From Marsupella aquatica (lineage: Eukaryota; Plantae; Marchantiophyta), in NCBI GenBank assembly GCA_973895155.1, contig OZ316896.1, positions 7,895,539-7,959,538 of the forward strand: 64,000 bases of DNA, written 5' to 3'. Both the position numbers and the translations under genes were made by a program. Position 1 is the stretch's first letter. Each line of letters begins with the position of its first letter. Of this stretch, positions 16,595 through 55,923 are shown one piece after another. Under the pieces are notes generated by a model. The model searched no databases. It saw nothing but the letters and a program-made list of their open reading frames with translations, and was not told where the DNA came from.

Positions 16595-18585
16595 CTAGAA
16601 TGGGGTCTTCCTACTCCTCTTTTTGGTCCGGGCCCTCTCCCCTCCTCGACGGGTCACAGCCACCCGAGCGGGCACGGGCTCTGGCTCCGGCTCTGGCTCT
16701 ACCTCCCCTGTACCCTCCTCGAGGCCACCATCCTCCTGCCCCTCCTTGTCCTCCTTGTCCTCATCCTCATCCCCTGGCTCAGGTGCTGATCCACCTCTAG
16801 GACGTGAACTACTACCACCTCCAGAGGATGTAACCTGCCTGCTACTACGATGACTATGACTATTGCGCTCATCCACATCGCTGCTGCTAACATCAGAGCC
16901 TGGCTCCTCAGCCCCCTCCGCATCCGTCTCATCGTCATCCTACTTGAAGCATGCAATTAGGAGAGGTCACCAATAAAAGAAGGAAAACTTAATAAAACCT
17001 TGCATAATGAAGACATGCACACAATTTAGAAAATTAAAGTGTTGAGACTTACACTAGCCAATGCTGCATCCGTGATCTCAAAGAGATGCTTTGCCCCAAA
17101 CTTTGCCCCTATCTTCATCTCTTCAAGGTGATTTTGTGGCGATACCTGTTATACTATCAAAGGCCACAATTTAACCAACCCACGTAATTAAGCCTAAAGT
17201 GACCCAAATTAATGCACATAATTCACACCCCACACAAGACTTTAACACTTAGAAAAATTTCAAAAAAATTTGAATTTGCGAATCGATGTACTTCGTAAAA
17301 TATGAAGCTCCATCAGTTGCGAAGCTGTTGTGATATTTTTTGCAAAGCGAACTTCATCGCAAAGCCTTCGGCAAAAATGTTCATGATTGGCTTTGCAAAG
17401 CTTTTGCAAAGCAATCCTCTTTGCAAGAGCTTCGCAAAGCCTGTTATGCAATAGATTAAAAAAAAGGTACCTTGTGCGTGTCAGAGCATATTAGGGCAAG
17501 GCAAAAGCAAGAGGATAGGAAAGAGGTTGGGGCATTGCACATCACAATATATTGAGGAAAGAGGCCAAGTAGTAGGGAAAGAGGAGGACACTCACAAAGG
17601 CTGCCTTTAGGCCGGGGAGTCCACCTTGCCCCATTCTGTGAGTGACCTTGGAACGGCTGGTCACTCGTGCAGCAACTTGGGAGAACTTCTTGGGTGGCTG
17701 ACCCTCTTCGTCCACAATTTGCTGCATGAGTTCTACTTGCTGCTCCAGGGGCTTCAAATCGCGGGTTGTCTTCCCGACCTCCTTTGCTTGGGTGAGCTCG
17801 TCTAACTTCTCCTTTGCTGCTTGCAGGTCCCTACTGGCCCTGATTTGCACCTCAACCTGGTAGAAGGCCTTCCACATGTCTTATGAGAATTGCAGAGGCC
17901 TCTTCAACCTCTTGTAGTTGTCAAGCTCCTTCAGGTAGGCCCTGATCTTCTTCCTGTCATGATATCGAGCCTGAGACATTGAATTTGAAATTCTGTCTGC
18001 AATCCATGTTTCATCCAGGTCTGGTCCATTTCGAAATGCATCTTTGACTTGTGTGGTCACTCTCTTCTGATCCTCACTGGAAAGCTTTCCCCATTCAACA
18101 CCTCTAGGGAAGTTAATGGCCACAATGTGCTTTATGGTGCTCTTAGCCCCTGTGTAAGCAAGCTCCAAAGGCAGGCCATGGGCCTCTACAAGAAGAATAG
18201 GGAGCTTCTTTTGCTCCTCCTCCTTCTTCTGCTGCTCCTCCCTGCTCTTTAGAATCTCATCCCTCTCCTCCTTTCTTCTCTTTTTCTCTAGGGCCTGAGG
18301 AGAGAGGACTCTTGCCTTGGCGCTCTCCTCCTTCTTCCTCTTCTTTGCTTTTCCCTTCTCTTTAGCTGCCTTCCTTGCTTCCTCATCTCTTGCAGCCTGC
18401 CCTGCTTCCAGTCCAGTTTGCAAAGCTTGCCCCAAGATTGCAATCAAGGAGGCCATCCCTGCAGGAGTACTCAAATCCAAGGTACTCAACTCTGCAGCCG
18501 TCACATGCTGAGATACCATGGCAATCAATCTATTCCTCTCCTCCTCTCCATTGTCCCCGCTGCCATTGCCACTACCTGATGCCAT
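16595..18585 (-). pseudogene. CACTA-A second gene, TnpA/Transposase_24-like; exons ~18585-17596, 17145-17053 and a last exon ending at 16595
   Basis: ORFs 17881-18585 and 17542-17877 are in frame across one TAA. Contains the HRMGQGGLPGLKAAF motif followed by a GTGAGT donor and ends KKRSRKTPF. Homologous to the genes in CACTA-B and -C. The TnpA label is inferred from the HxxG motif and context. Confidence 0.7.
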
Positions 18586-29657: not shown

Positions 29658-29873
29658 ATGTCATCAAGTTCTGAGTTGTCATCCACAAACTCATCTTCCT
29701 CTGATGAAGAGGATCCACCTCCTCCACAACCTCCTCGTGGTCCACCCCGCCAACTTTGTGTGTGTACCCAATGAATGGGTCAGGTCTCCCAGAAATCTTA
29801 TGTATGAGCTGAACATATAGAGAGATATGGGCGCCATGTACAAGGTCATTCTGGAGCTTCTTCCTCCCATATG
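29658..29873 (+). pseudogene. CACTA-A exon 1: Ser/Pro-rich leader and CxCxxC..H Zn-ribbon (Transpos_assoc-like)
   Basis: Translates MSSSSELSS...LCVCTQ*MGQVSQKSYV*AEHIERYG...HM followed by a GTGAGT donor; homologous to 40496-40729; two TGA stops. Confidence 0.75.
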
Positions 29874-29991: not shown

Positions 29992-30813
29992 GTATCCAAT
30001 AGGCTTAGACCTGCAGGACCAGCACCATATGTACCATCACAGGCAGTTGTAGATGCTATAGGCCAAGCCTTTCCACGTGTCTTCAATGGTCTAAGGGTAG
30101 GGGCTACCAATGTTGAAGGGGAAGTTGAGGAAGAGCCAGTAGTCCCAAGAGGGAGAAATCGGTCAAAGAGGAGGCCAAGAGGGGCCACCGATGCATATAA
30201 GTGTGTGGTTGAGGGTAGGTGGGGTAATTGTGAGTTCACAGGAAGATGTGTTCCTATTATCACGGATTGGGATCCTACAACTCTTGGGTTGCCAAACAAT
30301 CTGGCCCATGGTGAGCAGGTAGAAGTTTGGGGGAGACGTTGGGTTGTCAAACCCTCCACACTTGGAGACAGACATGGGTATGGAGTTTTTGCTTGTGAGG
30401 ACATCATAGTGGACTATGAGGTTGGTAGAGGTGGCCGTAGTGTAGAGGGACCTACTTTGTTTCCATATGGTGGACCCATCTACAAGAAGAGGCATTGGAA
30501 CATGATCCTCACACAACACCCTGAGTGGAAGACATATGCATTGGAGATGGATACTCATGAGGCCAACACTAGGTGCTATAGTGATCAGCGAGTGATAGAT
30601 GGGGACCCAATTCGAACTGGAAATATTGCTGGTTTTATTAATAGTACCGTGGGGTCTCAGCCTAAGCGTAGGCGGAACTGTGAGTGGGTATTCATTGAGG
30701 GTCCCCCACCGGCACCATATGGTCAAAGTTATCATCATGACCATTGTCTAGTTGTAGCTACCAGGACCATTTTAGCTGGTGATGAGTTGTTTACTCACTA
30801 TGAGTGGGATTAG
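29992..30813 (+). CDS. SET-domain exon of CACTA-A
   Basis: Open from the AG acceptor (29990-29991). SET motifs: VKPSTL..HGYGVFA, FPYGG, Y.L..D, IDG..GNIAGFINS, NCEW, VATRTILAGDELFTHYEW. Confidence 0.9.
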   Translation, partial: VSNRLRPAGPAPYVPSQAVVDAIGQAFPRVFNGLRVGATNVEGEVEEEPVVPRGRNRSKRRPRGATDAYKCVVEGRWGNCEFTGRCVPIITDWDPTTLGLPNNLAHGEQVEVWGRRWVVKPSTLGDRHGYGVFACEDIIVDYEVGRGGRSVEGPTLFPYGGPIYKKRHWNMILTQHPEWKTYALEMDTHEANTRCYSDQRVIDGDPIRTGNIAGFINSTVGSQPKRRRNCEWVFIEGPPPAPYGQSYHHDHCLVVATRTILAGDELFTHYEWD

Positions 30814-30848: not shown

Positions 30849-32700
30849 TGTGATACCTGTAGTTTGCCATAGAGAACCAAAAATCACATTTTAAAGTCTC
30901 CAAACTCGGTATTCGTTCCCTTTAAGAACAAGATGGGGTTGGTTTGATGTAATAAACTAAAAACAAAGCTTTAAGCTCTTGTGTCACACATAGTAATCAA
31001 TCTTGACTACTTTAATCAGGTACTTTGAAGATCGCTCCACAGCGGTGAGTAGTTTTTGATGATAACTCAACATCAGATAACCTTCAATTAAGCAAAAGAT
31101 TGCAATTAACAAAACACAAGGAAAAATCTCTCAGAGTATGCTTAAGGGAGTCTGGAATAGACCAAGGTTACTCCTTAGACATAAGTAATAATGGAATGAC
31201 TTTAAAGGGAATCCAAATCCACACGGCTTTTCAGATCTAAACTGCATACTAGAGTATCCTTTTAAAATGCCGGCAACATGTCTTGACCTTTCTTCCTAAG
31301 TGATACTTAGTCAAGATCTAAAAGGATAAATACTTCAGCATTTAGATGGTACTAAGCAACATGAAGGTGAAAACATCATTTCCAATGTAACTTAAACTCA
31401 ATGAGTTAACTCTAAGAACTTGTGAGATTACAATGTGTCACCAAAGCGGAATCTGACATTATAATTCACGAGATTCATAACTGAGGTTTTACTTCAAGTA
31501 TTTGGGTTCCAAAATACAAGAAGGAGGTAAGTCTCTCCAAATGTTAAACCTGATCTCGAACTCATAGATTCATGATCAACTAGTTTAACACAAGGGAGAG
31601 GCAAAACTGCAAAACTTAACCATCTCTCTACACTAGGGAAAGAGGTATAAATAGTGATGAACTACAGAATAAGAGGTCACAGGGTCGAAGAGACATGCCT
31701 CTTCATAACCCTCAAAAAGTCAAAACGACGATTCAATAAGTGGAAAGCCGGAAAAAATGGCTAAGTATGAACTCTTAAACTCTTAAAAACTTAAACTCTT
31801 AAAAACGTAAAAACTTAAACTCTTAAACTCTTAATTTCGGTATACTAAAAATTGAGTAGATTCAACTATTTTTAACTTTCTACTCCTGGTTCGGAAAACT
31901 CTGAAATTTTTCCAGTAGGGTTTCCTAGGTACAGACTACACACTAAAGAAGTATGACAGCTTCTAAAGCTCTAGAACACATTTCTAAAAATCAGATAAGA
32001 TGCACTACTCTAAAAACTAACTAAGAACACTTAGAGACTTCTTCAAGCTTGCTGTCGGATGTCCTCTGGTTCTAGTAACTCCACAAGGGTAACAATTCAG
32101 TTTTGGGTAACCTCTATCAGCTTAGCTTGGCGTGGGGATCCTCTGGAGTATGGTAGGCACCTCAGTTGTCTCTCAGGATACATCAAAGGCATTCTCTTCA
32201 TCAAATAACAGGAATCTATACGAAGAGCTTCTCTGTATATCCCTAGTACATCATAGTTGTTGCAGGTGGCAGCATATACTTGGGGATAGTGATGCAGAAA
32301 CTCATCACTATTCATCATCCTGGAATAGAAGGGTCGAAGTCTCCATTTGACATCTCTGAAATACCGGTTGAAGCTGGGCAGAGTTTGAGAGGTAAGGTGG
32401 AAGAGAAGTCAGTAATGAGCGCCTATGTCTTGCATTCCTTCCCTTTCAAGGTGAGCTCTTCATCCGTTGTGGAGTCCCGTTGAACTAGTTGTAAGATGTC
32501 ACGATCACAGAGTCGCCAAATCTTAAGGTGTAACTCGTAAAGAAGTGAACTAGTAAACTCGTAAACTGAGTTTACTCGTAACTTAGGAACTTAGTAACTT
32601 TGAATGCTGTTTTAGTTACAGTTAGCAATAATTGCAGTCTAAACACCGTAAAAAATTTAAAAATTTTCAGTTTCTTCATGCTTTTGGAATTACCCACTAC
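30849..32700. mobile_element. Unclassified LTR-retroelement-like fragment between the SET and Tnp2 exons of CACTA-A
   Basis: This spacer is ~2 kb in A versus ~120-150 bp in B and C. It has TGTGAT(30849)...ATCACA(32509), a TATAAATAG box, AACTCTTAA microrepeats and a PBS-like TGGCGACTC on the minus strand (32510-32518). No clean TSD; boundaries uncertain. Confidence 0.45.
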
Positions 32701-35700
32701 TTACAATACCATTATATATATATGGCGTTTGCCCGCATTTTGTATTTATTATTCATTGCCCACCATTTGTGCATTTTGAATATGTATTTTTTGTTGTGAG
32801 TCTAAAATAGATTGAACATGATTTTTTTTCATAGAATGTGCGCCCCTCTCAAAAGATGTTACCACGGAGGTTGAGGGCAACATATGAGCAAATGGGTATC
32901 CATCAGAAGGGCAAGGGTCACCGCCTGGTTCATCATCAAGTGAAGATGATACCCATAGCGTTGAGGATGTGCCACAACAAAGGGATGATGAGGCCATGGA
33001 GCCCCAAGACAGAGCCATGGATGAGTTCATGGTAGATTGGTTTGGAGCTGACCCGACACATGAAGTGGAAGACCTTGTACATGAAGAACATGCCACATCC
33101 AATGACCCACGGCCATGACATACACCAGAGGGACAACGCCAATGGGAGGAAGCAGAGAACCATGCCCAAACACCTATCTATGAGGGTGCACGACTGAGTA
33201 GACTTTCAACAATCTTGGGGTTGTTGAATCTTCAGGCCAAACATAAGGCCAACAATGCCTTACTATTAGATATGTTTGCATTTTGCCATGACTTCATGTT
33301 ACCCAGTGAGAACAATTTGCCAGGAACTCGGAAGGAGGCAAAGAGTGTGTTGTCATCCATTGGCACGGAATATCATATCATTCATGCATGTGTGAATGAT
33401 TGCATGTTATTTCATGGGACTACTGAAAACCTAACAGAGTGTACAACATGTCATGAGCTTCGGTATGACCCTAACATGTTGACAAAGAAGGTGCCAAGGA
33501 TATAAGGCTTGCTCCACTTGTGGCCCAAGCTTTGAGGACATGGCCAAATATTGTGCATGGCTTAGAAAAATTGTTTACATCGGGCATACAAAGTTTCTTC
33601 CAATGGGGCATGACATGAGGTCTGACCCACTTTTATTCTCCTCCTTTGACATGCCCCTTGGTGATGAGCGTGAAAAACCTGATGCAACCAGTTTTGCATA
33701 TTGGAAGTCGCTAGCAGATAGGGTGGCAGACCCACTTGATCCTCTCACCTTTGATGGGACCGGCTTAACACGTTGGAGTATACTAGCCACTTTGCCTTAT
33801 TGGTCTGAGATGAAGATCCGTCATTTGTTAGACCCCATGCACATAGAAGGAAATGTGGGGAAGGCATTGATTAAGGCTTTCTATGGGGATAAAGAGACTA
33901 ATTTCAGGGAGGCATGTGAGGATTTGGAAATGCATCCAGATGTATGGATAATTGTTGATCCTATTACAGGTATAGAGCATCGTCCTTCTGCTCCTTGGGT
34001 GCTCAGTGTTGGTCAAAGACGGGAGTTTTGGAATTGTATAGGAGAGATGCAATTTCCTACAGGATATGGAGCCAATCTTCAAAAGGCTTTTGGGATGGAG
34101 GACAATCACAAGTGGCCATGATATCTCGAGACACATGACTATCACCGGTTATTGCAACATATATTGCCAGTGGCAATCATAGGTCTTGGCAGTGAAGAAG
34201 TGCAAGATGCCATTTGGTCATTGGGTTGTTTGTTGAGATGGATATGCTCAAAGGAGATAGATGTAGAGGAGATCCCTAGGATGGAGATATTGGCAGCTGA
34301 GGTGGTGTGCAAGTTGGAGAAGGCCCTCCCTCCCTCCTTCTTTGATTGTCAAATTTACTTACTTGTGCATCTTGTGCGTGAGGTTGCTATTGCTGGTCCA
34401 GTGCATTGTCGATGGATGTATTGGTTGGAGCAATACATGGTTGTATTGAAGGCTTATGTACGTAATCGTGCACGGGTGGAGGGGAGCATAATTACAGGAT
34501 ATTTGGCAGTGGAGAGCATGTTTTATTGTAGTAACATCTTGGCCACAATTGATCCTACTTGCCCACGTACTTGGATGGAGGAGAGGGATGTGGAGAAGGA
34601 CCGTTTAACTGGAGCAAAAAAGACACGCATGTTGACATCAACAGAGTGGTCACAGTTGACAACATTCATGTTGAATAACAGCAATGTCATGGATGAATGG
34701 AGGGAGTTTTATGAGAATGCCAAAAGTATGAGTACAAGGGCAAGGATTTTTCCTAAATTGCATGACTATATGAAGCTGAAGTTGGTTGAGTTGGATAACA
34801 TGGTGGCACAAGGAGGAGATGTATTGATCAGACTTTCCGGGTATCACGGATGATGTGCGGAGCATTGTTCATGGCCCTTTGAGAGAAGTAACATCTCGGA
34901 CGGCAATGTGGACACAAGGGAGGCATTTCAGGTCCCACTAGTATCTAACCTTGTTGCCATTACAATTATTGTGTTCATTTATCTATATTGACCTTGGGGG
35001 TGTTAATCCCCATTTCTTTTGAGCTTCTTTTCATTGGGGTCTATACCTTTGATGCTTTGTTTCTCGCTTCCCTTTTGAACATTAAATTATGATTTTTGTC
35101 TTTTTCTTTCCCTCTTACTTTTGGTTTTGTTAATTTTAGGATTTCTTCCCTTGATGAGAAGAGAGGCTGTACCTTTGATTGTGGAGTTCAAGGCCAGTTC
35201 TCTCAAGACTCCTGAAGTAGTTGCCATGACAGGAATATTGTTCGAGATGTGGTGCCACACTATGGAAAGATAGAGGAGATCTTGGTGGTATCATATGACA
35301 CCCATTCAAAGTTTGAGGAGTATGTCTTGAAGTGCAAGTGGTTCAAAGTAAATCTTGCTGGTCAGAATTGAACTGTACTTCAAGATGAGAGTGGGTTCAC
35401 TACTACATATTGGCCCCTTTTGCGAAGCTTTTTTTTGACGCCGGGATGGTCTTGCGATGTCATCGACTTCAGATATTTTGTGATCAAACACGCATCACAA
35501 TAAACCATGCTCAAAGGTTCGCAACATAGTGTTGCGAAGCTAAATACCTCGCAATTTGTTTGAGATCGGATTGAATTTGCAACTCTTTCAGATACTATTA
35601 GTCTCACAAAGTATTTGTGGATCCGCGACCATCGCGACTGCATTTGGATCTCTTTTGTTTCATAATTTAGCGATAATAATGTACTCAAATATATCTTGTG

Positions 35701-36152: not shown

Positions 36153-39100
36153 TCAAACCTGGTCCTCATCCTCTCCTCCATTTGACACAATAATAACGTT
36201 AGGTTTTTCCGAGATAATGGAACGGGACCGTGGCACATACGGTATAACAACTGACCACTCTGGGTCTGGTGGGTACGGAATATAGAAACACTGCTCAAGG
36301 TGACTTGGGAATGTAAATGGTTCAGATGTTTGCCAATGAGATGGTTGAAAGCTAGTTGCTGATGTCTTCAGTCGAGTAAACCCACACTCATCAAGAAGTA
36401 CCGTGCGATTATCCAACCAGGTGAATTTTGAACCACTTACACTTGAAGACATACTCTTCAAATTTGGAATCGGCATCATAGGATATGATCAAGATCTCCT
36501 CAATCTTCCCATAGTGAGGCACCACAACTCTGATCACATTAGTGTCATGACGGCTACTTTGTGAATCTTGCATGAACTGCCCTTGAACTCCACAATCAAA
36601 AGTTCTTCCCCTCTTCTCATCAAGGTCAGAAATCCTGAAATGCCTCCCTTGTGTCCACATTGTTTTTCTGGTCTGAACAAGTCTTAAAGGACCATGAACA
36701 ATTGTTTGAACCTCAGGAGTCATATCTGGAAAATGTGATACATTCTCACCTTGGGCCACCATAGCATCCAACTGAAGTACTTTCTCCTTCATATACTCAA
36801 GGAACTTTGGAAAGATCCTTGGGCGACGACTCTCCCTCTTTGCATCCTCATAAAACTCTCTCCAATCTTCCATCACATTGCTGTTACTCAACATGAAAGT
36901 ACTAACCTGTGTCAACTCCACTGTGGTTAGTAAGCGTGTTTTTTTTGCACCTGTTAAACGGTCCTCCTCCACTTCCCTCTCTTCCATCCAAGTGTGTGGA
37001 CAACTAGGATCAATGGTAGCTAAGATGTTACTACAATAAACATACTCTCAGCTGCCAAGTATCCAGTTGCCATGCTCCCCTCCACTCGTGCACGGTTCAG
37101 TACATAAGCCTTTAACACGGCCATATACCTTTCCAGCCAATACATCCACCTACAATGCACCGGACCGGCAATGGCAACCTCCCTCACAAGATGAACGAGA
37201 AGATGCACCTGTCAATCAAAGAAGGAAGGAGGGAGGGCCTTCTCCAACTTGCATACCACCTCTGCTGCCAATACCTCCATCCGTGGTATCTCTTCTTCAT
37301 ATATTTCCTTTGAGCATATCCATCTCAACAAAGTGCCCAGTGACCAAAGGGCGTCTTGCACTTCTTCACTCCCCAAACCTATGATTGCCACAGGAAGTAT
37401 ATGTTGTAGTAAACGATGATAGTCATGTGTCTTGAGATACATTGGCCATTTATGACTGTCCTCCATCCCAAAAGCCTTACGTAGATTGGCACCATAGCCT
37501 GTAGGAAACCGCATCTGCCCTATGCGTTGTTGAAACTCTCTTCTTTCACCAACACTCAAAACCCATGGAGCTGAAGGACGATGTTCCATCCCTGTGGATT
37601 CATCAACTGTTATCCATACATCTGGATGTCGTTCTAGATCCTGGCATGCCTCCCTAAAATTAATGTTCTTTTCCCCATAAAAGTGCTTGATCAAAGCCTT
37701 CCCAACATTTCCCTCTATATGCATGGGGTCTAACAAGTGATGAATCTTCAACTCAGGCCAATAGGGCAAAGTGGCCAGTATACTCCACCTTGTCAATCCA
37801 CTACCATCAAATCCCATGGCATCTTCAGGGTCTGCCACCCTATCAGCTATGGATTTCCAATACGAAAATGTTGTGCGGTCAGGTATCTCACGCTCATCAC
37901 CATTGATCATGTCAAAGTCTAAAAACAAAAGGGGGTCAGACCTCATGTGATGCCCAAGTGAAAGAAACTTGGTATGACCAAGGTAGATTATCTTGTGCAG
38001 CCATTTTGAGTACTTGGCCATATCGTGAAGGCTTGGACCACAAGTGGAGCATGCCTTGTACCCTTGAGTTTGGAACCCAGAAACAAACCCAAACCCTGCT
38101 CACAAAATAACATTCTCAATTAGAGTCAAAGGAATTGAAAAGTTCATGTACATAGAATTAAAGAGGGACTTCCTTCCAAACAAACTTGATCTCCAATACA
38201 TGAAAAAAATACAAATCCATACCACTCACCTGGATAGTCATGCATGGTCCACATAATGATTCCCTTCAATTGGAAGACACGTGGTAACCCTCCTGTAGTT
38301 GTCCGACCATCATATGCCCATACACCCCCCCATAATTTATGGAGTTCCCCAACCAAGAGCGCCAAGTAGGTGTCCATGTTTTTTACCTTAGATGGACCTG
38401 GGATAATCAATGATAGCAATAAGAATCCCTTTTTCATGGACAACCATGGGGGAAGGTTGTAATTCATAACAACCACCGGCCAAACCAAAGTAGGGCACCC
38501 TTTCCCTCCAAGGGAGTGTGGGCTCACCCCATCTGATGCCAACCCCAACCTCACATGACGAGGGTCACGTGCAAACTCTGGCCATTGTGACTCCACATGC
38601 TTGTGAGCAGGGGAATCAATTGACAACCGCATGACACCGGCCTCTGATCGATGTGTCTTATGCCATACCATCAATTCTGCCAAGTCAGAACATCGGTACA
38701 TGTGCAACAATCGAGGAATAATAGGAAACCAACGAACAGCTTTTCTAGGCACCTTTGAGGTCAACATGTTGGTTTCATATCGAGGCTCTTGACAAATTGG
38801 ACACTCAGTTGCGCTGGCATTGGTCTCATGATAGAGAATGCAGTCATTCACACAAGCATGAATGATATGGTATTCCATGCCAATGGATGATAGAACCCTC
38901 TTTGCCTCCTTCCAAGTTCCTGGCAACACATTTTCACTGGGTAACAAGAGATCATGGCAAATTGCAAACAAATCCGATAGTAGCGCATTGCTTGCCTTGT
39001 GTTTTGCCTGAAGATTCATCAATGCCAAGATGGCAGATAGTCTATTCAAACGAGCACCCCCATAAATAGGTGTTCTAGCATATGCCTCAGCTTCTTCCCA

Positions 39101-39418
39101 TTGTTTTTGTCCTTCAGGTGTACGTTGAGGCCTTGGATCATGTGCAACATTTGGTGGAGGATCTCCTTCATTGGGTGGGACACCTCCTTCACCACCAATG
39201 TCTACACCAAACCAATCTGTCATGAAGTCATCCATGGCTGACTCTTGGTCTTGCATGACCTCATAATCTGTCCGAGGTGCCCCTTCATCTGGACTGTCAT
39301 TATCATTGTCACTTGATGAGGAATCTGCTGATGATGTTTCCCCGTCTTGTGGCAAGCCCATTTCTTGATATGTAGCTCTCAACCTCCTTGGCAACATATC
39401 TTGACTAGGCCGCACATT
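36153..39418 (-). pseudogene. CACTA-B Tnp2/TnpD transposase; exons 39418-38230 and 38095-36153
   Basis: RHVRLGLASDG, VWPVVVMNYNLPPW, WTMHDYPG, DPMHIEGNV, HDYHRLLQ, GPVHCRWMY. One TGA (37212) and two frameshifts (~37037, ~36410). Confidence 0.95.
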
Positions 39419-39568
39419 CTATAGACAATACAATAAAGCATTCACAATGAAATTAACTCCAAATATAGTAGTGCTCGAAACATATTATTAACAATATAAA
39501 AAGAACATGTCATTACAAAACATACGTTCACATACGATGAACATATAATACATGTCCCTAAAGTAATC

Positions 39569-40383
39569 CTAATCCCATTCATAATGTGTAAACAACTCCT
39601 CTCCAACCAGAATGGTCCTATTAGCTACAACTAGACAATGGTCATGATGATATCTCTGCCCATAAGGGGCTGGAGGGGGACCATCAACAAAAACCCATTC
39701 ACAGTTTTTCCTATGCTTAGGCCGGGTCCCCACAGTACTGTTGATGAAACCGGAAATATTCCCACTACGGATGGGATCACCATCAATTATACGCTGGTCA
39801 CAATACTTTCTGGTGCAACCATCAAAAGTATCCATGTCCAATGCATAGGTCTTCCACTCAGGGTGTTGAACAAGGATCATGTTCCAATGTCTCCTCTTGT
39901 AAATGGGTCCACCATACGGGAACAACGTTGGTCCATCCAAAGAGCGCCCTTTTCCACCCATATCATCCACAATAATGTCCTGACAAGAGAAAATCCCATA
40001 CTCATGCCTCTCCCCTAGGGTCGAACTCTTGACAACCCAACGTCTTCCCCAAACTTCTATCTCCTCACCATAGGTTATATCACATGGCAAACCAAGGCAC
40101 TCCGGATTCCAATCCTTTATGATAGGAACACACTTCCCTATGAAGGTACAAGGGCCCCATCTACCATCAACCCTACAAGTGTACTGATCCACTTCCCCTC
40201 TAGGCTGTCTTTTTGAATTTTTTTCCCTCTTGTAACAATACCGTCACCCTGAATTGTCCCAACACTACCTTGCCCTGCTGCCACTAAACGAAAAGCTTGT
40301 GAAAGTGCCGAGCCTATAGCATCTAGAACTCCTTGTGAGGGAACATAGGGTGTTGGTGTAGTGGGTGTAGGCCTACTGGATAC
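39569..40383 (-). CDS. SET-domain exon of CACTA-B (frameshift in an A-run near 40220, upstream of the domain)
   Basis: HEYGIFS, FPYGG, IDGDPIRSGNISGFINST, NCEW, VANRTILVGEELFTHYEWD; acceptor CTATAG ends at 40384. Confidence 0.88.
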
Positions 40384-40495
40384 CTATAGGAAGAAATGGA
40401 ACCAAGTGAGTGTGATGAACCTCCCAAATTTTATTTTATGCTACCTAGCAAGATTTACAAAATAAAATGGAAATCACAGTAAGTTTACAACTCAC

Positions 40496-40729
40496 CATAC
40501 GGGATGAAGAAGCTCCCGGTGTAAGACCTCGATGTTGGCCATATCGAGCAATGTGCTCCACACATACATATGACTTTTGGACAACCATCCCCACACATTT
40601 TTTACAACCACAAAGTTGGCGTGGTGGACCACTAGGTCGACGTACGGTTGGTTCAGGCTGAGGAGGAGGACGACTTTCTTCATCGGAAGAGGAATCTGAT
40701 GTGGTGGAAGTTGTAGAGGATGAAGACAT
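40496..40729 (-). CDS. CACTA-B exon 1: Zn-ribbon (Transpos_assoc-like)
   Basis: LCGCKKCVGMVVQKSYVCVEHIARYG; ends ATG followed by a phase-0 GTGAGT donor. Confidence 0.8.
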
Positions 40730-41164
40730 CTGACAAGTATAGCAATTGGAAGGCGATTAGTAAAAACTTCACCAAAACCATCATTGATAATCCCTACCTA
40801 AACATATTAAAAAGAATTGACAGAAAAATACCTTTATGAGACCCGGGCTTAGCAATGCCTTGACGGATCTTGTGGCTCAAATTTCATGAACCAAATCTGG
40901 AAGAAGGAGGGGAAAATCTGCCAATATACAATGAATTAAGCCATGCCTTATGGTGAACCAGAAAAAAAGGATGATAGATTGTAACCCTCCATGTTTACAG
41001 CAATGACTAGAAATGCATGAGAAAACGTTATACCTTTCAGATGCCCGGGCTCTCGCAAGGCATGATCATGCATTAGCCAAAACTTTAAAAAACATGGGGA
41101 AGTGCCCTACAACGCCACAGAGTTTTCCACTCCATGTTAATGAGATAGAGAAAGAAATATAAGT

Positions 41165-42602: not shown

Positions 42603-44618
42603 ATGGCTACCGGTGAGGGGAGTGGAGGGCAAGGTGGTAGTGGTAGTGGTAGTGGCAATGGGGGAAATCCAGAGAAAGAGAAGAATGCCTGGGCAGACTT
42701 AGTGGCCCAACATCTCAGTGCTGCACAATTGGGAGAAGTGAATCTCAATTCTCCAGCAGGGCTTGCCTCTTTGAGTGCCATTCTTGGACAAGTTTTGCAA
42801 ACTGGGATTGTAGCAGGACAAGCTACTAGAGAGGGGGAGGAGAGGGCCGCAGCTGAAGAGAAGGCTAGAGAGAAAAAAAGGAAGAGAGAGGAAAGAACTA
42901 AGTCGGGAGTTGCCTCTCCTCAAGCCCTAGAGAAGCAGAAGAGAAGAGAGGAGAGAGATTCAATTCAAAAACAGAGGTAGGAGCAACGTCAGAAAGAGGA
43001 AGCAAGAAAAAAACTTCCATTCATTGCCTTGGAGACGAGTGGGACTCCAACTGAGCTAGCGTATGCAGGGGCTAAGAGCACAATCAAACAGATTATCACA
43101 AGTAATTTCTCACGAGGCATGCAGTGGGGGAAGATTGAGAAGGCAGAGCGAAAGAGGGTCATCAACCAAATCAAGGATGCATTTCGCAATGGGCCTGACA
43201 TAGATGAGCAATGGTTGGCAGATAAGATTTCAAATTCTATGTCTCAAATGCGATACCATGACAAGATGAAGATTAGAGCCCACCTGAAAGACTTGAGATC
43301 ATACAGGAACTTGCGCAGACCCCTCCACTTCACCGAGGACATCTGGAATTTGTTTTACAAGATTGAGGTGCAAATTAAGGCAGCTCACGAGTTGGAAGAG
43401 TGGAAGGCCAATCTAGATCGAGCCTTGAAAGCAAAGGAGGCCGAAGCTCCCCCCTGACCACGACCTGAAGCCACTTGAGCAGAAGGTAGTTGAGATGCAG
43501 AAGGTGGTCGACCAGGAGGGAAAGCCACCCAAGCGTTTCACAGATGCAGCCAAACGAGTGAAATCCACCCCCAATCCAGTCCACAAGTTGGGTCAAGGCG
43601 GGCTCCCCGGCCTCAAGTCACACTTTGTGAGTGCCTCTTGCTCCTCCCTAACCTCTCTGTTCCTTTCAGAGTTGTGCAATGCAAGTGAATGACATCCCCG
43701 AATGTTCTTGCTATTGTGCATGCTTGCTTGGTTACTAGTTTAGGGCAACTCTGACACTTAGAATTTTTGGCAAATTTTTAAAAACTCTCGGGAACACAGT
43801 TTGCGAAGGTGTTGCGATGCGCATTTGTTCGCAAACCCCTCGCAAAGTCTATCATGGACTTTTTCCATTTCAATTTTCCGATGCCTTTGCGAACAAATGC
43901 GCATCGCAAACTCCATCGCAACTCCTTCACAAAAAATGTGGTTCGCAAGTTGCCATGCTTATAGGTTCGCAAATTTGAATTTTAAATTTTTTTTGGGTCG
44001 TGTTTAGTAGTTGAGGATTTAGGCGTCACTTGTGGCTATAGGGTATGCTTAAGGGCAAATTTAACCAATTTTAATTGGTTTTATGCATGGCAGCATCGGA
44101 GGTACAAAAGGAAGATATCAAAAAAGCATATTGAGGTGGCGATAGAGCATGGACGAAAGTACCTCTTTGCGATGGTAGATGCCGAGTTGGCTACTGTAAG
44201 TGTCTAAGTGTGAACCATATGATTAGCATGCGAACATTGTGAGTGACCCTTTATGTCTTGCGAAAACTAATGATATGTAATGGATGCAGGATTCGGATGA
44301 GCCTGAGGGGTCGGGTGCTGATGTGAGCAGTAGTGATGATGATGAGGGGGCTACTCCTGGTACTAGTGGTGCTCGGGGGGGAGTAGTCGTGAGGTAGGTT
44401 CTTCCCACCGTGGTAGTGGTGGTAGTCGTGTGTCATCAGCACACGTTGATGACCAGGGGGAGGAGGAGGACCCTGAGGATGAGGAGGAGCCAGAGGAGCA
44501 GCAGGAGCAGGAGCGCCGATGGCCATCACGCACCCGTCACCAACAGGATCCCCGGAAGGATAAGGGCAAGAAGCCAGCCAAGAAGCCAACCAAGAGGAGC
44601 CGCAAGAGCCCATTCTAG
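42603..44618 (+). pseudogene. CACTA-B second gene, TnpA/Transposase_24-like; exons 42603-43626, ~44094-44195, ~44290-44618
   Basis: Clear homolog of the A gene (PAGLASLSAILGQ, AYAGAKSTIK, FRNGPD, HKLGQGGLPGLKSHF + GTGAGT donor, ..RSRKSPF). TAG at 42978 and a frameshift near 43455. Confidence 0.72.
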
Positions 44619-46548: not shown

Positions 46549-49236
46549 CTAAAAAGGTGTGTTGCGTCCCTTCTTCTTCTTTGGGCGAGAACGAAGGGTG
46601 GGTACATGTCTAGCATCATGAGAGCCCTCCTCCCTCTGGCTGCCCACAACCGTGGCAGCCACCTGCTCACCAGATGGCATGGGTTGGCCTGATGCAGGCC
46701 TAGACCCTGACCCACTAGATGCACCGCTAGGGTGGTCAGGCAAGGTAGATGTCCCACCAACCCCCGACACGGCAGAGTGAAAGGACGCCTTAGCTCCTCC
46801 CGCAGACCTGCTAGAGTGATGGGATGGTGCGCCAACAGATCCTGTGGGTGGCCCATGTCGTGCTGTACTCCCACCAGACTCACGAGATGGTGCGCGCCCT
46901 CTAGATCCACCATCCGGCACGTCGCCACTACCTCGTCGGGAAGGGCCACCTGCACCAGATACTCCTACGCGATCGCCTCGTCCCATGCCATCACCTCTAC
47001 TACCCCCTGAGTGCCTGGGCCCCGCACCCCGTGATGCTCCACAGCGATGGGAGCCCACACCATCAGCAGCATGTGACCCACCCCTCCCTGCTGATGGGGC
47101 AACGGCACCAAATGGGGCAACAACACCCTCGGGGGGGTCACTTCCACGGAAGTGACACATCACGTGCGACGAAGTATAGGCCCATTTAAATGGGTGTGGC
47201 GGAAGACTTCCAAAGTTAGGTGGAAGAACACATAGGGCATGTTTTATTGATTGGTCGACTTTAAAGAACACATAGGCCTATTTAATTGCAAAAAATACTT
47301 TCTATAAAGTTTTTAGGGGTTTTTTAATAAAAAATGACAAAATTTTAAGAAAGAAAGGGCTTTGCAAAAAAATATTTTTCACTTTAAAGTTAGGGGGGTC
47401 AAACCCTAAAACGTCGCACGCGATGTATGACCCTCCATATAGTGACCCCCCCGAGACAACACCTCGGACCTGAGGAGTAGGGGTGACTGTGGGCACCCTC
47501 CCCAACCCTGCCTCAGCATCCTGCTCAGAATCTGAGTCCAGCTCCTCCGACCCAGACCCCTCCTCATCCTGCGCAATAGGGTTTAATTGCAGTTAGAATG
47601 AATGGTCCCGACCATAACTCTAACAAATTCATGACAACCTTAAACATTATATCACCCTAGGGTGAACACTTACCTCTCCCAACTCATCCTCAAGGTGGCG
47701 CTTTAGAGCGCGGGGTCCATCCGTCTTTGCCAAATTCCTCTCCAACGGCGCAATAGGGCGACCATACTCCCGCTCCTGAAATTTAAAGATCCAAACCATA
47801 GAGGCCAGGTTAATATCAAATCTAGTATTAGCGTGCCCTACCCTAAACCAAGCCACCCTACATAGCCCTAATGTAACCTTAAACCATAGTTCACCCTAAC
47901 TTATACTCTACCCTAGTAAAAAATTAACGTTAAGTACGTTCATTCAAAAATTTAAATGTTTTGCCGAGGGGTCCGATTCAGAGTCCGATACAGCCTGCAT
48001 CGGACGTCTATCGGATGCGTAACAAGAAAAATGGCATGACACGGTGTCCGATGCTGCTTCCGATGCAAAACCTATCGGATGAGTATCGGAAAGAACAAGC
48101 CCGAGAGCAAAAATGAGTTTTGCAAAGGGTTTAAACAAAAGACATAAGGCACAAACAACTCATTCTTCGTGCGAGGAGTCAGGTGATCAGGGAGTCGAGG
48201 TGGGGAGGAGAGGGAGGGCACTTACAAACTCAGCCTTCAATCGATTGGAGCCGCCTTGCCCCATCCGGTGAGTGATGGTTGGCCTCCCCTGCACTCTCTC
48301 CAATGCTGCTATGATGTGCCTTGGTGGTTTGGGGAGTCTTGCTACCTGAGCTGCCCATTGTTGCAGGTTCTGTTGAAGGGGGAGGATATCAACATTCTCC
48401 CCAGCCTTTCGCTTCTCCTCTGCCAGCCTAATTTCGTTGTCCCAATGTCTTCTTTTCAGCCAGGCACGGACTGAGAGTTCCTCCTCAAGCCAAGCCGCCC
48501 ACTCATCCGGGGAAACATCGTCTGGACAACCCTCCTCCCTGATCACCTCTGCATCCACTGCCATATCTCCAAGGTACTTTCTGAATTTCTCTCGCTGATG
48601 ATTGCGCATGTCTGAGAGTGATGCTGAAATTCATTTGTTTAGGAACCTGTCATCAATGTAGGCCCCGTTCCTGAACCGTTCCTTCACCTGCTCTCTGATT
48701 CTCAATCTCTCTTCCTCCTTCTTCTTGCCCCAGTAATCCAGTGGCCCCAAATTGGCCCTCAGCACCTGCTTGAATTGGCTTCGGAATAGATGGTAGCTCT
48801 TAGGCAATGGACCACCACCCGAATTGAGAGCTAGCTCAGGCCTGAGAGCTCTCTCTGCCTCCTTTCGCCTCTGCTCCTCCAATCGCACCTTCTCAATTGC
48901 CCTAGCTTCTTTTCGAAGCTTTTTCTCTCGTTTTCTTGGAGACAGTGTCTCCTCTACATCCCCCTTGCCTCTCTTTGCCTCTTTCTTCCTCTTCTTTGCC
49001 TCCTTCTCACTTGCAATGCTTGCAGCAGCAGTCTTCTCTGCCTCACGCCGAGAGGCATCAATCAGCGTTTGGAGGAGTGGGACTACTCTCTTTGCGTCCT
49101 CCACACTCAGCCCTGCCTTGGCCACAAAAATGTCCCTCATAACTTCATTGTATGGCTGGGACGGTCCCCCTTGCTCTCCACCACCACCTGATCCCCCTTC
49201 GTCTCCCCCACCACCTGATCCCCCGCCCCCCTCCAT
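46549..49236 (-). pseudogene. CACTA-C second gene, TnpA/Transposase_24-like; exon 1 49236-48226, then two further exons
   Basis: QVKERFRNG, HRMGQGGSNRLKAEF + GTAAGT donor, C-terminus KKKKGRNTPF. TGA at 48631; MITE in the last exon. Confidence 0.7.
47128..47455 (+). mobile_element. MITE family 2, diverged subfamily
   Basis: TIR CTCGGGGGGGTCACT...AGTGACCCCCCCGAG; 8-bp TSD ACAACACC; shares ATCACGTGCGACGAAG and AAAACGTCGCA with the other copies. Confidence 0.92.
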
Positions 49237-49898
49237 CTCTCCTCCTCCTTCAAGCTCTCCTCCTTGATCCAGCTTCAAAAAATTTGAAAAACACCAAGTG
49301 CAAAACGGGGCCCGACGCGCGGGTCTTCGCACCTGCATCGGTTCTTTTTTCCGAAACAAAACCTGCTGCTTCCGATTCTTTCTATTTCGGACTTTGCGAA
49401 ACCAAAGGTATCGGACACGCAATCGGACTTTCCGAAACTATGTGCTTCGGACCCCTCGTCCTTTTCTTGTGGCCGTGTATTTACCAAGTGTGGCCCGTTT
49501 CCTATTGCATCGGACCCCTCATGAATTTATATCGGATACCTCTTGGCTTTCCCAAAGGGGGTCCAATATAATGTTTTGAATTTGGGTTGGGTATAATGGG
49601 ATTGGAGGGTTTAGAGTATAATTTAGGATATTTAGGTTTTGTATGGGGTAAGGGCACATGGTTGGAGTTATTATTTGCTTTCATATTTGAATCCGCGTTT
49701 TGTAGGGCTCTACATATGTGAACGGGATAGTGAACGTGTCATGCATGTAGAGGGACCTCTTGCAAGTTTCTTTGTTGCGGAGAACAAATTTTGGGGTTTG
49801 TACCGGACTATGTAATTTTTTTGATAAGCTATGGTCTTGCATGCTTAATATATTGGGCTCTAATTAATGATGCAATTGTGTATAGAGTCTTGGTGTTT

Positions 49899-50925: not shown

Positions 50926-51160
50926 ATGTCTACTTCTGATAGTTCCACGTCAGATTCAGACTCAGACACAAGCTCGTCTGAGGGGGAGGTTCCTCCACCC
51001 CCTCCTCCAGATCGTCCTCGTGCTCCACTAGGACCCATACCTTGCTGGTGTGTGAGATGTAAGGGACTTGTGGTTCGACATGCGTGGGAGACTGTCTTGT
51101 GAGCACATCGAGAACTATGGCCGCCACGAGGGTGATATGCCAGGGTATTTGCCTAGCCAG
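50926..51160 (+). pseudogene. CACTA-C exon 1: Zn-ribbon (Transpos_assoc-like), frameshifted near 51095
   Basis: MSTSDSS..PCWCVRCKG...(fs)CEHIENYGRH..SQ followed by a phase-0 GTATAT donor. Confidence 0.72.
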
Positions 51161-51298
51161 GTATATATATGTTTATGTCCCCTATTCATTCCATATATGC
51201 ATTCCAATTTAGGGTATTGCTTAATTATCTTGCATTTACATCCTGGCACTACTTAATTTATTGATTTGTGTAAAACCATTGTACGTGTGTTGAAATAG

Positions 51299-52560
51299 GT
51301 GCCTCGTAGGCCCCCACCTCCTTTGGTTCCTGAAGCTGTGTGGTTGGAAGGGTTTCTAGCAAGGGCCAGGGAGTTGCTTGCAGTTCCTCCTGCCCAGATG
51401 CCTCTTAGCCCACCTGCTCCTATCCCCACTCCCGTGCCCACACATGAGCATGTAGAGGGGGAACCGGTCTCTCGGCCCGAGGTTGTGACTACTAGAGTCC
51501 TACGTACACGACCACGATCTGGTAGACGTAGACGGCAGTATGGACCACTGGACCAGGTAGACAGACGAGAGGAGGTGTTAGGTACTAGTGATCGACCAGC
51601 CGGTAACGTAGATTATATTTGCGTTGAGGGCAGGTTTGGACTATCCTATCTCACTGGTAGGGCTGCCGAAGTTTTGAAGGACTTTTCTCCAAGTCTCTTC
51701 AAATTTCCAGATTTTATTCCTACAGATGAACCAGTTCAGATATGGGGTCGCCCTTGGATAGTGAAGGCATCCTCTATTGGTCATGATATAGGATATGGTC
51801 TTTTTGCTTTGGAGGATATTGTGGTCCCTCCAAAGCCATGGAGACGTGGTTATGATGGAGAGCACCTCTTTCCTTACATTGGGGCTGTATATAACTCCAA
51901 GAGTTGGAATATTTTGTTGCGTCAACACCCAAGTTGGGGGGTGTATGCATTGAGGATGGACTCAGACCCGGATGAGGTCTTCACTAGGCCGTGGCATTGC
52001 CGGATGATTGATGGTGACCCTATTCGGAACGGTAATTTAGCAGGGTACATCAATAGTACCACAGGTAGAGATAGAGGTTTGGAGGCTAATGTAGAGTGGA
52101 TTCAAATGTTTGGTCCATCTAGACATCCATATTTTGTGAAACATATGGACGACCATATCATGACAGTAGTTGTTAGGACCATTAGAGCCTCGGGGGTTTT
52201 ACTTCCACAAAAATGACATATCACGTGCGACGAAGGATAGGGTCATTTTATTGGTTGTAAGGGAAGACTTAAGAATTTTTGTAGAAGAACAATAGGGTCT
52301 TTTAAATTCAATTTTGAGACTTATAAGAACATTAGGGCCTTTTTAATCCAATTTTTGGAATATTCCAAGAATATTCCAACTTTATAGGGGTTAATTTTTT
52401 TTTTTTAAATCTTACATTTTAGGGGGTCCAAGGCCTAAAAACGTCGCAGGTGATGGGGAGGTCCCCATGTAGTGAGACCCCCGAGATTAGAGCTGGTGAG
52501 GAGTTATTGTGTGAGTATGAGTGGGATGCACCAAAATTGTCCTTGCGTTGTCGTCCATGA
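51299..52560 (+). pseudogene. SET-domain exon of CACTA-C, interrupted by a MITE
   Basis: IGYGLFALEDI, FPYIG, IDGDPIRNGNLAGYINST, NVEW. Removing the MITE and one TSD restores VRTIRAGEELLCEYEWDAPKLSLRCRP*. Confidence 0.9.
52189..52485 (+). mobile_element. MITE family 2, copy 3
   Basis: Same TIR; 8-bp TSD ATTAGAGC. Confidence 0.95.
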
Positions 52561-52681
52561 TAGTTTCTTGGACTTACATACATGTATATATATGTCAATT
52601 TATTTTACATGTTTACATGAGAATGATGTTGTTCAGCAGTGCATGTGTTGATGAGATTAATTAATTGATGTTGTATGATAG

Positions 52682-55600
52682 AATCAATATGTAACGCCTG
52701 ATATTGGGGTAATATCACGAGCTATGCGACAACACCTTGTTGAGGCCATGGTGGCCAACCGTGGGCATGAACCACAAAGGCAAGAGGATGGGGTACGACA
52801 TGATGGTGATGATCCTATCCAAGACCATCTTGATGAGGAGAGGGCCATGGATGAGCTCATGGACCAATTCTATGATGATCACGATGACATTGGTTTGGAG
52901 GACATTGGTTCAACCCATGAAAGGACTAGTCATCCACATCCTTCTAGGGGGTCCCAAGACAAGCAATGGGAGGAGGCGCAACGTCATGCCCGTACTCGCA
53001 TATTCGAGGGGAGTAGGTTATCTCGGCTCTCATCAATAATGTTGTTGCTCAACTTGCAGCAAAGACATGGGGCAAGCAATCTACTTTTGGATGATGTTTT
53101 CCGTACCTTGCATGATCGTATTTTGCCAGTAGGCAATGCATTGCCAGCCTCTTGGAAAGAGGCTAAACAGGTGTTGAGGTCCATTGGCCTGAAGTATGAG
53201 GTGATACATGCATGTGTGGATGATTGCATTCTTTTTAGGGGTGAGCATGAAAATGCCACTACATGTCCTAAATGTCAGAGGCCACGGTACCGTGATGACA
53301 TGTTGACGGGGAAGGTACCGCAAAAGGTTATGAGGTACTTTCCTCTTATCCCTCGATTGCGACATCAATTCCGATGTGCAGAGTTGGCTGAGATGATGGT
53401 ATGGCACTCACAAAATCGTTCTGATATGGCTGTACCCTCTAGTGCCATGCGGATGATGGTTGACTCTCCTGCCAATCGATTTGTAGAGGATAGATGGGGA
53501 GAGTTCAAAATTGACCCACGACATGTTCGACTAGGCTTGGCAGCAGACGGTATCAGCCCTTTTGCTTTGACAGGAAAAGCCAAACCATATTCGGTGTGGC
53601 CAGTAGTGTTGACAAACTACAACATCCCTCCTTGGATGGCCATGAAGAAAGGTCACCTACTACTCTCCATGATTATTCCGGGTCCTAAGCAAGTTAAAAA
53701 GATTGATGTGTACTTGCAGCCATTGATTGATGAGTTGATACAACTGTGGAGAGGAGTGGATTGTTATGATGGACGTCACAACACAGGAGGTTTATCCTGC
53801 GTATTTACTCTAAAGGCCATCCTTATGTGGACCATGCATGATTTACCAGGTATGGTAAACCCTTATTTCCTCTAGTACCTAAACCTTGTATTTAATTGCA
53901 ATTATGCAGATTTTTGCCTTGATGAACCTTATTTTATGAATGTGTTTTCTATGCATTGGGCAGGGTTTGGATATGTTTCTGGATTGCAAACATCAGGCTA
54001 TCGAGCTTGCTCTACATGTGGACCCGATTTGGAGGGGGTGGCCAGGCCCAAGTCAAGTACTCTGCAAAAAATTGTTTACATTGGTCATACTAAATATCTT
54101 CCACCAGACCATGGAGGAGTGATCCATTCCTTTATGATACTGATGAGGGCCAACCTGATATTCGTCCTCAACCTCAGCGGAAGGATCCAGCATATTGGAG
54201 AGAGGTATGGGGGAGAGTTCAGGATCCGAGTGATCCATTACCATTATTCAGATGTGGCATGACCCGTTTGTCTGCATTGTCACAATTGCCATATTGGTCA
54301 GATATGCCCATTAATCACTTGTTAGACCCTATGCACATTGAGGGGAATGTGGGGAAATCATTGATTCGCCATCTATATGGGGAGAAAAATAACAATTGGA
54401 GAGAAAGTTGTGAGGAGATGGGGATGCATGGTCTTTTGGGTTTTTGGCCATCTTTGGACCCCCCTGGTGCTCCCCCTAGCATCCATCCTCCTTGGGTTTT
54501 GACAAGGGTAGAGCGCATTGAGTTTCGCAGACGTATTGGGTTGATGAGGTTTCCCACAGGTTATGGTACCAATCTTCGGAAGGCATTTGGGGGGGAGGAT
54601 TCTCCAAAATGGCCATCTTTCTTGAAGACACATGATTATCATCGGTTGCTTGAACATGTTCTTCCAGTTGCTATTATTGGATTGGGTAGTGAGGAACTTC
54701 GTGATGCCCTTTGGTCATTGGGTAAGCTCTTAAGATGGGTATGTCAAAAGGAGGTACAGGAGTCCGATGACATTGCTGCTATGGAGATATTTGGAGTAGA
54801 GGTTGTCTGCAAGTTGGAGAAGGCACTCCCTCCCTCATTCTTTGATGGTCAGGTTCATTTCCTCATACATTTAGTGCGCGAGGTTGCAATTGCAGGCCCA
54901 GTACATTGTCGATGGATGTATTGGGTAGAGCGTTATATGGGGGTGATGAAGTCATATGTCTTTAATCGCGCTAGGGTGGAAGGTAGCATTGCGGAGCGTC
55001 ATCTTGGAGCAGAGAGTATGTTTTACTGTACAAACATAGTTGCCACACTAGATCCTAGTGCTCCTAGGGGATGGATAGATGAGGCAGCACGAGAGGCTGA
55101 CTACGAGGATGATAGACTCACTGGGGCATCTGGAGAGCGTCTCATAGGCTCAGCAGAGCGTTTACAGCTCACAACATTTATGTTGTATAACTCACCCGAG
55201 GTTGTCGGGGAGTGGACAACATTTTATGAGGAGGAGAAGCAAAATAGTCGACGCCCACGGTTATTTCCCAAGTTTCACCCATACATGAAGGAGAAGTTGT
55301 TAGAAGTGGATGCCCTGGTGGGTACCGGGGAGAGTGTATTACACTACCCAAACGTGACAGATAAACTTTGTACCTTGGTTCATGGTCCACTACTTATAGT
55401 CACGACTCGGACTGCCATGTGGTCAAAGGGGAGACATTTTCGTGTGGAACGACTTGATGAGAAGAGGGCAGCTACACAGGATTGTGGGGTGATGGGTTGG
55501 TTCACCCAAGATTCCCAGAGTAGCATGTCAGACATGAATCCCATTCGCTCCACCGTGGCCCATTATGGGAAGATTGAGGAGATCCTAACAGTGAAGTACC

Positions 55601-55923
55601 ATGCACATACTACTTTGGAGGAAGTGGTATTCAAGTGCAAATGGTTCAAGATGAATCTTGTAGGCCACAATCGTACTTGTGAAGATGATGCATGCGGTTT
55701 TACTCGTTTGAAGACATCCGCAAATAGTGTCATCAGTTCCAACTGGAGGTCCTCAGATCCCTTTGCCTTCCCACATCACCTTGAGCAATGCTTTTACCTA
55801 CCCTATCCCAATGACCCCGAGTGGTCCATTGTCATGCCGTATATTCCCAGATCACGGTCCATAGTCCAAGAGAGACCCAACGTAGTTGTAGTGGAAGATA
55901 GAGACATACCCCCCACGAGTTAG
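52682..55923 (+). pseudogene. CACTA-C Tnp2/TnpD transposase; exons 52682-53849 and 53964-55923; one frameshift near 54115
   Basis: YEVIHACVDDCILF, RHVRLGLAADGISPF, YSVWPVVLTNYNIPPW, WTMHDLPG, DPMHIEGNV, RWMYWVERYM; 554-aa open 3' part. Confidence 0.96.

Follow-up and report, generated by a model that had tools for sequence, protein, structure and literature searches.

Can the transposase gene of a transposon encode two proteins, a SET-domain protein and a transposase, that share one first exon? We investigated this question in a repeat-rich 64,000-nucleotide stretch of the liverwort Marsupella aquatica (contig OZ316896.1, positions 7,895,539 to 7,959,538; hereafter the window), in which three CACTA transposons, here called A, B and C, are nested. 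The exon order common to all three is an exon encoding a Cys/His finger (exon 1), a short intron, a SET exon, a spacer of 120-170 nucleotides, the acceptor TAG|AAT and a Tnp2 transposase exon. The spacer of A fits this range only after removal of an insertion; its length is due to a solo-LTR-like (long terminal repeat) element of 1,848 bp, without which it measures 168 nucleotides. From the conservation of this layout, we consider it probable that the SET exon lies between two exons of the transposase gene as part of a splice switch, which would yield either a finger-SET protein or a finger-transposase.

The assignment to CACTA elements rests on the CACTA...TAGTG termini, on the 3-bp target-site duplications (GTG for A, GTT for B and TAT for C) and on a transposase matching PF02992, DUF4218 and DUF4216 in Pfam (PF02992 E-value for the Tnp2 exon of C, 3.5e-40). 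C is inserted in the 3' end of A. The Tnp2 frame of A resumes on the far side of the B insertion, which is absent from other copies, as seen from loose ends at 45404 in contigs of public sequencing runs. The region that had been singled out by a sequence-only reading (38230..40729) extends from exon 1 of B through the first Tnp2 exon of B (Table 1).

All nine splice coordinates proposed in that reading were correct when checked on the sequence. The exon 1 donors are ATG|GTGAGT at 29873 and 40496 and CAG|GTATAT at 51160, and the Tnp2 acceptor is always TAG|AAT (32835, 39418 and 52682). The SET acceptors are TAG|GTA at 29992 and 40383 and TAG|GTG at 51299, although the Val with which the SET exon was said to begin is not conserved beyond the window: Sphagnum-type loci have Gly and locus L033 has Ala. 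The claim that the SET exon ends in its own stop held for A and B. For C, the stop originally placed at 52214-52216 lies inside a miniature inverted-repeat transposable element (MITE) of about 300 bp with an 8-bp duplication; the true SET frame ends at 52558-52560, and contigs of the same family skip the MITE. Likewise, the exon 1 donor is in phase 0 in A and B but out of frame in C, because exon 1 of this copy measures 235 nucleotides from ATG to donor. The family contigs are 4 nucleotides shorter near 51092, and there the donor is in phase 0.

Further breaks are two in-frame stops in exon 1 of A and a frameshift near 40217 in the SET exon of B, where family contigs from all but one of the public runs are in frame. 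Since these contigs represent family members without the breaks, we regard the phase-0 layout as the state of the family. A, B and C are homologous, and the agreement of phases alone is therefore a 1-in-9 event rather than three independent ones. The real support, judged from the alignments, is that the sites have been kept across synonymous distances ranging from about 0.7 to saturation. No intron-like joints at the predicted sites were found in contigs from five public runs; these runs behave as DNA, so this result has no bearing on expression.

The SET exon is predicted with confidence to encode a SET fold. PF00856 is found above the Pfam cut-off in A and B; C gave no Pfam match, and its core shares 42-47% identity with those of the other SET exons. 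The predicted structure (mean predicted local distance difference test score, pLDDT, 86.6) matches solved SET domains (Foldseek E-value 7e-7; Z up to 12.4, root-mean-square deviation 2.5, 124 aligned), with Z of 11-12.4 to Set1, EZH2, SET7/9 and SET8. A PDB search with a single SET sequence gave no match, and a profile search of the PDB gave weak SET matches only (best E-value 5e-5). The residues that we take to be motif I (GxG), the YxG motif, motif III (Asn) and motif IV (ELxxxY) are nearly invariant: GxG is kept in 47-48 of 49 aligned members, the G and last Y of YxGxxY in all 49, the Asn in 44 and the terminal Tyr in 45. The ratio of nonsynonymous to synonymous substitution (dN/dS) is 0.18-0.40 for SET in 14 between-family pairs, compared with 0.09-0.22 for Tnp2 and 0.14-0.35 for exon 1, which indicates that the SET exon evolves under purifying selection. 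Within a family, the pair L002 and L045 has a SET dN/dS of 0.98. The first Met of the SET exon follows motif I in A (171 vs. 129) and in B, so that an upstream coding exon would be needed for SET; the intron of 112-138 nucleotides that separates it from exon 1 has ordinary ends.

Exon 1 carries a CxCxxC-x13-H finger that is kept in divergent relatives. The earlier identification as a Transpos_assoc Zn-ribbon did not reach the Pfam threshold: the match to PF13963 covers profile positions 36-64 of 74 and reaches 16.2 of the required 27.7 bits (E-value 0.012), below the cut-off. A second, divergent member matches the same region at 14.9 bits. The finger is likely to be a shortened relative of Transpos_assoc. 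Exon 1 of C matches a finger profile built without C (E-value 4.7e-13). This profile comprises 12 rows, six of which are among, or near-identical to, the 127 proteins searched; its matches to 11 of the 127 are therefore partly circular, and we use only the match to C.

Which exon precedes Tnp2 can be approached from the Tnp2 exon itself, whose open frame starts precisely at TAG|AAT. Ahead of the first Met are seven codons that read NVRPSQK in A, NVRPSQD in B and NIRPSED in L002 (consensus N-V/I-R-P-S-Q/E-D/K); the Arg, Pro and Ser codons differ synonymously, Ser being encoded by TCT or AGT among others, while the intron upstream of the acceptor aligns poorly. Conservation of protein rather than DNA marks the start of Tnp2 as that of an internal coding exon, and its partner must therefore end in phase 0. 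Among seven SET exons, no phase-0 GT kept in at least six has a donor-consensus score higher than 6 of 9, the score being a crude count of matches; the better conserved GT sites inside SET are in phase 1, and the exon 1 donors score 7-8. The conserved codons before Met and the lack of a conserved phase-0 donor in SET together make exon 1 the likely partner of both exons. The finger profile detects no finger in the Tnp2 exons, and in other plant CACTA transposases the Transpos_assoc finger is N-terminal.

The same arrangement was observed in sequences from elsewhere. In a metagenome motif scan that returned 45 loci, a phase-0 GT is present at the exon 1 donor in 34 of the 35 loci that reach it, and the SET acceptor AG is kept in 16 of 22 (four are mutated and two rearranged). 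Seven loci include the SET stop, and the six of these that reach the next acceptor all read CATAG|AAT. The Sphagnum-type loci keep the same phase-0 sites; most of the loci belong to this one family and are 94-96% alike, so they add about two independent lineages. One locus, L024, has lost SET by deletion, and the 3' part of its transposase comes immediately after exon 1.

Among named organisms, the closest relatives of the SET protein occur in Sphagnum species and in Calypogeia fissa, at 74% identity in the latter. In predicted gene models from both genera (several species in the case of Sphagnum), the junction of exon 1 with SET falls where it is expected. Together with Riccia, gene models show the same exon order in a moss and two liverwort orders. 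In Riccia sorocarpa, the CxCxxC-x13-H finger precedes SET in P0053, P0077 and P0097, and Tnp2 follows SET in P0100, P0123 and P0129. Another relative, P0057 (source type not given), has finger and SET in one open frame. A profile search placed the SET family in 127 clusters at 50% identity. Distant members lacking the finger (P0168, Ginkgo Gb_21150; P0112 and P0115, Calypogeia) may be genes that have been domesticated or that other transposons carry as cargo. In a tree of 37 rows picked from full-length members, the deep branches of which are unresolved, A and B cluster with the members from Calypogeia and Sphagnum, and C falls on another branch. There was no sign of recent horizontal transfer between moss and liverwort elements, the SET exons being 68-71% identical with synonymous distances of about 0.7-1.2. 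None of 12 pattern matches in viral contigs and none of 17 in prokaryote genomes were confirmed as relatives, and the predicted SET resembles viral SET folds no more closely than cellular SET folds. These results neither favour nor rule out an origin in viruses or bacteria.

We now return to the claim that SET is an alternative terminal exon behind a shared exon 1. It remains the best fit to the DNA because of the conserved phases, the coding constraint before the first Tnp2 Met, the lack of a conserved phase-0 donor in SET and the fact that neither A nor B has a usable Met ahead of motif I of SET. One pre-mRNA would begin with two non-coding exons ahead of exon 1, and the choice of acceptor would decide the product. 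Use of the near acceptor would remove the intron of 112-138 nucleotides and, if the 3' end of the transcript forms within the A+T-rich spacer, give a finger-SET protein of about 350 residues. Use of the far TAG|AAT acceptor would remove SET within an intron of 1.1-1.5 kb and give a finger-transposase of about 1,120 residues.

Several observations weigh against this account. All three copies in the window are broken. The SET domain is closest to no one subfamily, as the top Z values tie within 1 and identities are 15-28% across the Set1/MLL, EZH2, SET8, SUV39 and Set2 comparison; it has N-S in place of the usual N-H (Ser in 46 of 49 members) and no post-SET cysteines, with pre-SET cysteines also absent from what is a small SET family. 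The link of the finger to Transpos_assoc stays below the cut-off, with matches in two of 12 members. None of the 11 exon 1 proteins retrieved joins exon 1 directly to Tnp2, in a search that was insensitive (12 candidates, with known exon 1 proteins missed); these proteins run on into SET, a linker or an intron. Finally, part of SET is fused to Tnp2 in several models from Riccia and Sphagnum, at positions that vary, and an in-frame Met is present at Tnp2 codon 8 in A, B and the Sphagnum-type loci, with a second AG just before it.

That Met, or the one at codon 15 in C, would allow exon 1 to serve SET only, with the transposase starting on its own, either under a separate promoter or after the splicing of a non-coding exon to TAG|AAT; conserved non-coding donors upstream could be used for the latter. 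The lack of exon 1-Tnp2 joins among the models retrieved agrees with such a start, yet we regard it as quite improbable, since the codons before the Met are conserved as protein, A and B carry an out-of-frame ATG at +2, the corresponding N-terminal stretch of the Riccia relatives lacks a Met, and the spacer in the window measures only 120-170 nucleotides. The reverse arrangement, with exon 1 belonging to the transposase only and SET being a gene nested in intron 1 with a start of its own, or very rarely expressed, finds some encouragement in P0003, P0011 and P0033, relatives whose SET exon has a Met close to its start. Against this, motif I is not preceded by any Met in A and B, acceptor AG and phase are conserved, and P0057 unites finger and SET in one frame; this arrangement, too, appears improbable.

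A donor inside SET joined to Tnp2 would instead yield a single finger-SET-transposase in the manner of SETMAR. Fused SET-Tnp2 models exist (P0027, P0080, P0100, P0101, P0123, P0127, P0129, P0131, P0135, P0156 and P0174), six of seven SET exons share a phase-1 site resembling a donor in the NCEW motif, and a phase-1 AG lies 19 nucleotides into the Tnp2 exon in B and the Sphagnum-type loci. But this second AG is in phase 0 in A, the joins differ in place between models and mostly lose the terminal catalytic Tyr, the SET stop is conserved and, as a weak indication, no relative of 479-2000 residues occurs among 1615 candidates, so that we give such a fusion little credence. Least credible of all is that SET is a captured host fragment carried passively and without a role for the element. 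The broken state of the window copies and the neutral drift between L002 and L045 would suit it, whereas the constraint between families is close to that on Tnp2, the active-site residues hardly vary, and a family of this breadth (127 clusters) retains one order in a moss and two liverwort orders. The splice switch with a shared exon 1 accordingly remains our preferred reading.

The elements also contain a second open reading frame (ORF2), oriented away from the transposase and located at a corresponding position in all three elements and in most of the metagenome loci. Its product is helical, with a confident helical domain at residues about 100-210; it has no Pfam or PDB match, and its model (pLDDT 64) gave generic helical fold matches only. 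We consider it a candidate for a TnpA-like DNA-binding protein outside flowering plants. Because this separate, divergently oriented frame is present, SET would be a third product rather than the counterpart of TnpA, and the parallel with Spm that had been drawn holds only in part.

The AG and GT sites of the putative 5' exons are kept in A, B, L002, L045 and L033. Both of these exons end in a conserved motif, GCATTG..GAGCCCGGGCATCT..AAG|GT (41034-41070 and 40832-40870 on the minus strand; 29300-29330 and 29520-29547 on the plus strand), which also occurs in Sphagnum-type loci, is degenerate in C and is possibly a regulatory site. Between ORF2 and the transposase gene lie telomere-like, GGGTTTAG-rich tandem arrays (41160-42100, 28940-29160, 23420-23900 and 19150-19440), presumably within the promoter region.

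In maize En/Spm and Arabidopsis EN/SPM3 and EN/SPM7, TnpA and TnpD are described as products of one alternatively spliced gene (PMC13547354; 10.64898/2026.08.24.746577). The bryophyte elements share with En/Spm the CACTA termini, the 3-bp duplication, the Tnp2 transposase and, as predicted from DNA, probably two proteins per transcript. They differ in that the second product would be a SET-fold enzyme instead of a helix-turn-helix DNA-binding protein, in that its exon lies upstream of the catalytic exons, and in having a separate divergent accessory frame as well. A SET domain is carried by another member of the EnSpm superfamily, the red-algal Plavaka, whose accessory gene PAG2 is described as an N6-adenine methylase with SET (10.1101/2025.02.11.637652). 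Both seem to have been conserved over long times; PAG2 is described as a separate, methylase-fused gene, whereas SET in the bryophyte elements forms a single exon within the gene for the transposase and lacks a methylase partner. SET methyltransferase genes, for which a role in counter-silencing has been proposed, are also reported on Phytophthora HarbingerS and MuDR families and on Helitrons (PMC12730594; 10.1101/2025.02.11.637652). These are likewise DNA transposons with a SET methyltransferase gene, but of other superfamilies and hosts, and the descriptions at hand mention no coding exon shared with the transposase. VANC of VANDAL elements, reported as a separate DNA-binding anti-silencing protein of tested activity (10.1101/2025.02.11.637652; PMC13547354; PMC12730594), is a possible functional analogue as an element-encoded factor acting on its own chromatin. 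These accounts document SET genes on transposons of other groups, and alternative splicing of Spm, but not the combination (PMC12730594; 10.1101/2025.02.11.637652; PMC13547354; 10.64898/2026.08.24.746577; PMC4158355). We found no description of a SET exon in bryophyte CACTA elements in the full-text literature, with subscription journals, Repbase and supplements (including the Plavaka and TET/JBP transposon tables) outside the scope of the search.

SETMAR (Metnase) of primates is a single fused, domesticated host protein with a mariner transposase. The resemblance that had been proposed is correct in that SET and transposase coding sequences occupy one gene, and the SET domain of SETMAR is among the fold matches (Z 8.3). 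The comparison is nevertheless loose, because the two domains in the bryophyte elements are predicted to exclude each other. The conserved SET stop speaks against a SETMAR-type fusion, and the elements are mobile, multicopy and bounded by termini and duplications.

Table 1. Features of the nested CACTA elements in the window.
Feature	Position	Strand	Evidence and state
CACTA element A	15534-57603	+	Termini CACTAC...GTAGTG; 3-bp duplication GTG; holds B, C, retroelements and MITEs
A, divergent accessory ORF2	17456..18585	-	Limits approximate
A, exon 1 (finger)	29658..29873	+	Two premature stops
A, SET exon	29992..30813	+	Open, 273 codons; Pfam SET E 5.8e-6
Solo-LTR-like insertion in spacer of A, 1,848 bp	30858..32705		TG...CA ends; 5-bp duplication ATACC
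A, Tnp2 from TAG|AAT	32835..35397	+	Frameshifted; internal deletion; split by B; 3' end at 45405-45650
CACTA element B, 10,007 bp	35398-45404	-	Termini CACTAC...GTAGTG; 3-bp duplication GTT; sits in transposase of A
B, Tnp2 exon 3	36153..38095	-	One stop and two frameshifts
B, Tnp2 exon 2	38230..39418	-	TAG|AAT to phase-1 donor; open frame; PF02992 E 7e-37
B, spacer, 150 nucleotides	39419..39568	-	73% A+T; predicted 3' untranslated region and poly(A) region of SET, and 3' end of long intron
B, SET exon	39569..40383	-	Phase-0 acceptor to stop; frameshift near 40217; Pfam SET E 2.8e-5
B, exon 1, 78 codons	40496..40729	-	Ser/acidic tract and CxCxxC-x13-H finger; phase-0 donor; Transpos_assoc E 0.012, below cut-off
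B, putative non-coding 5' exon	40832..40917	-	Conserved AG and GT sites
B, second putative non-coding exon	donor end at 41034	-	Conserved splice sites
B, divergent accessory ORF2, first exon	42603..43640	+	End approximate; premature stop
CACTA element C, 11,022 bp	45651-56672	+	14-bp terminal inverted repeats CACTAGTACATTTT; duplication TAT; divergent family
C, divergent accessory ORF2	48187..49300	-	Limits approximate
C, exon 1 (finger)	50926..51160	+	Frameshift near 51092
C, SET exon	51299..52560	+	MITE (about 52188-52486) near 3' end
C, Tnp2 exons 2 and 3	52682..55923	+	Intron 53849-53964; PF02992, DUF4218, DUF4216

The nest of 42 kb (15534-57603) comprises A with B and C, retroelement-like blocks (about 19500-28900), the solo-LTR-like insertion and MITEs. 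The MITE family of about 300 bp has CTCGGGGG...CCCC(C/T)GAG ends and 8-bp duplications, hAT-like by their length; its four copies (15655-15952, 27025-27323, 47127-47455 and 52188-52486) all lie inside other transposons. Elsewhere in the window are a repeat-flanked CASP-like host gene (5648-7400, plus strand; CASP_dom matches below the cut-off) and two 92%-identical copies of a retroelement-associated coding region lacking a Pfam match (23892-27024 and 60688-63840), with related reading frames at 11170-13559 and 20586-22238.

What the finger-SET protein might do can be stated only tentatively. It could be an S-adenosylmethionine-dependent lysine methyltransferase, brought by the shared finger to the chromatin or transposition complex of its own element and opposing host silencing there, a proposal to which we give somewhat less than even weight. 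A self-directed role in chromatin is possible, if on balance doubtful. More speculative, and rather unlikely in its entirety, is the full picture of an old bryophyte CACTA lineage with a histone-writing enzyme in its transposase gene, where a switch in splicing and polyadenylation would alternate between an anti-silencing finger-SET and a finger-transposase, the finger serving both as an address tag.

For annotation, many Sphagnum and Riccia models called 'SET domain-containing' are parts of transposons of this kind (360 members in one cluster). Being small and devoid of pre- and post-SET cysteines, the SET family should also be easy to express and assay. The setting is one in which transposons are partly repressed by H3K27me3, as described for bryophytes (10.1101/2022.10.24.513474), and the plant anti-silencing factors in the accounts cited above, VANC and TnpA, act as proteins that bind DNA. 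A SET enzyme carried by transposons and kept in mosses and liverworts would represent a different route. The shared exon would make the balance between marking chromatin and jumping a single splice choice, measurable by reverse transcription polymerase chain reaction. If true, this would be enzymatic anti-silencing in a land-plant transposon, tied to transposition by that one choice.

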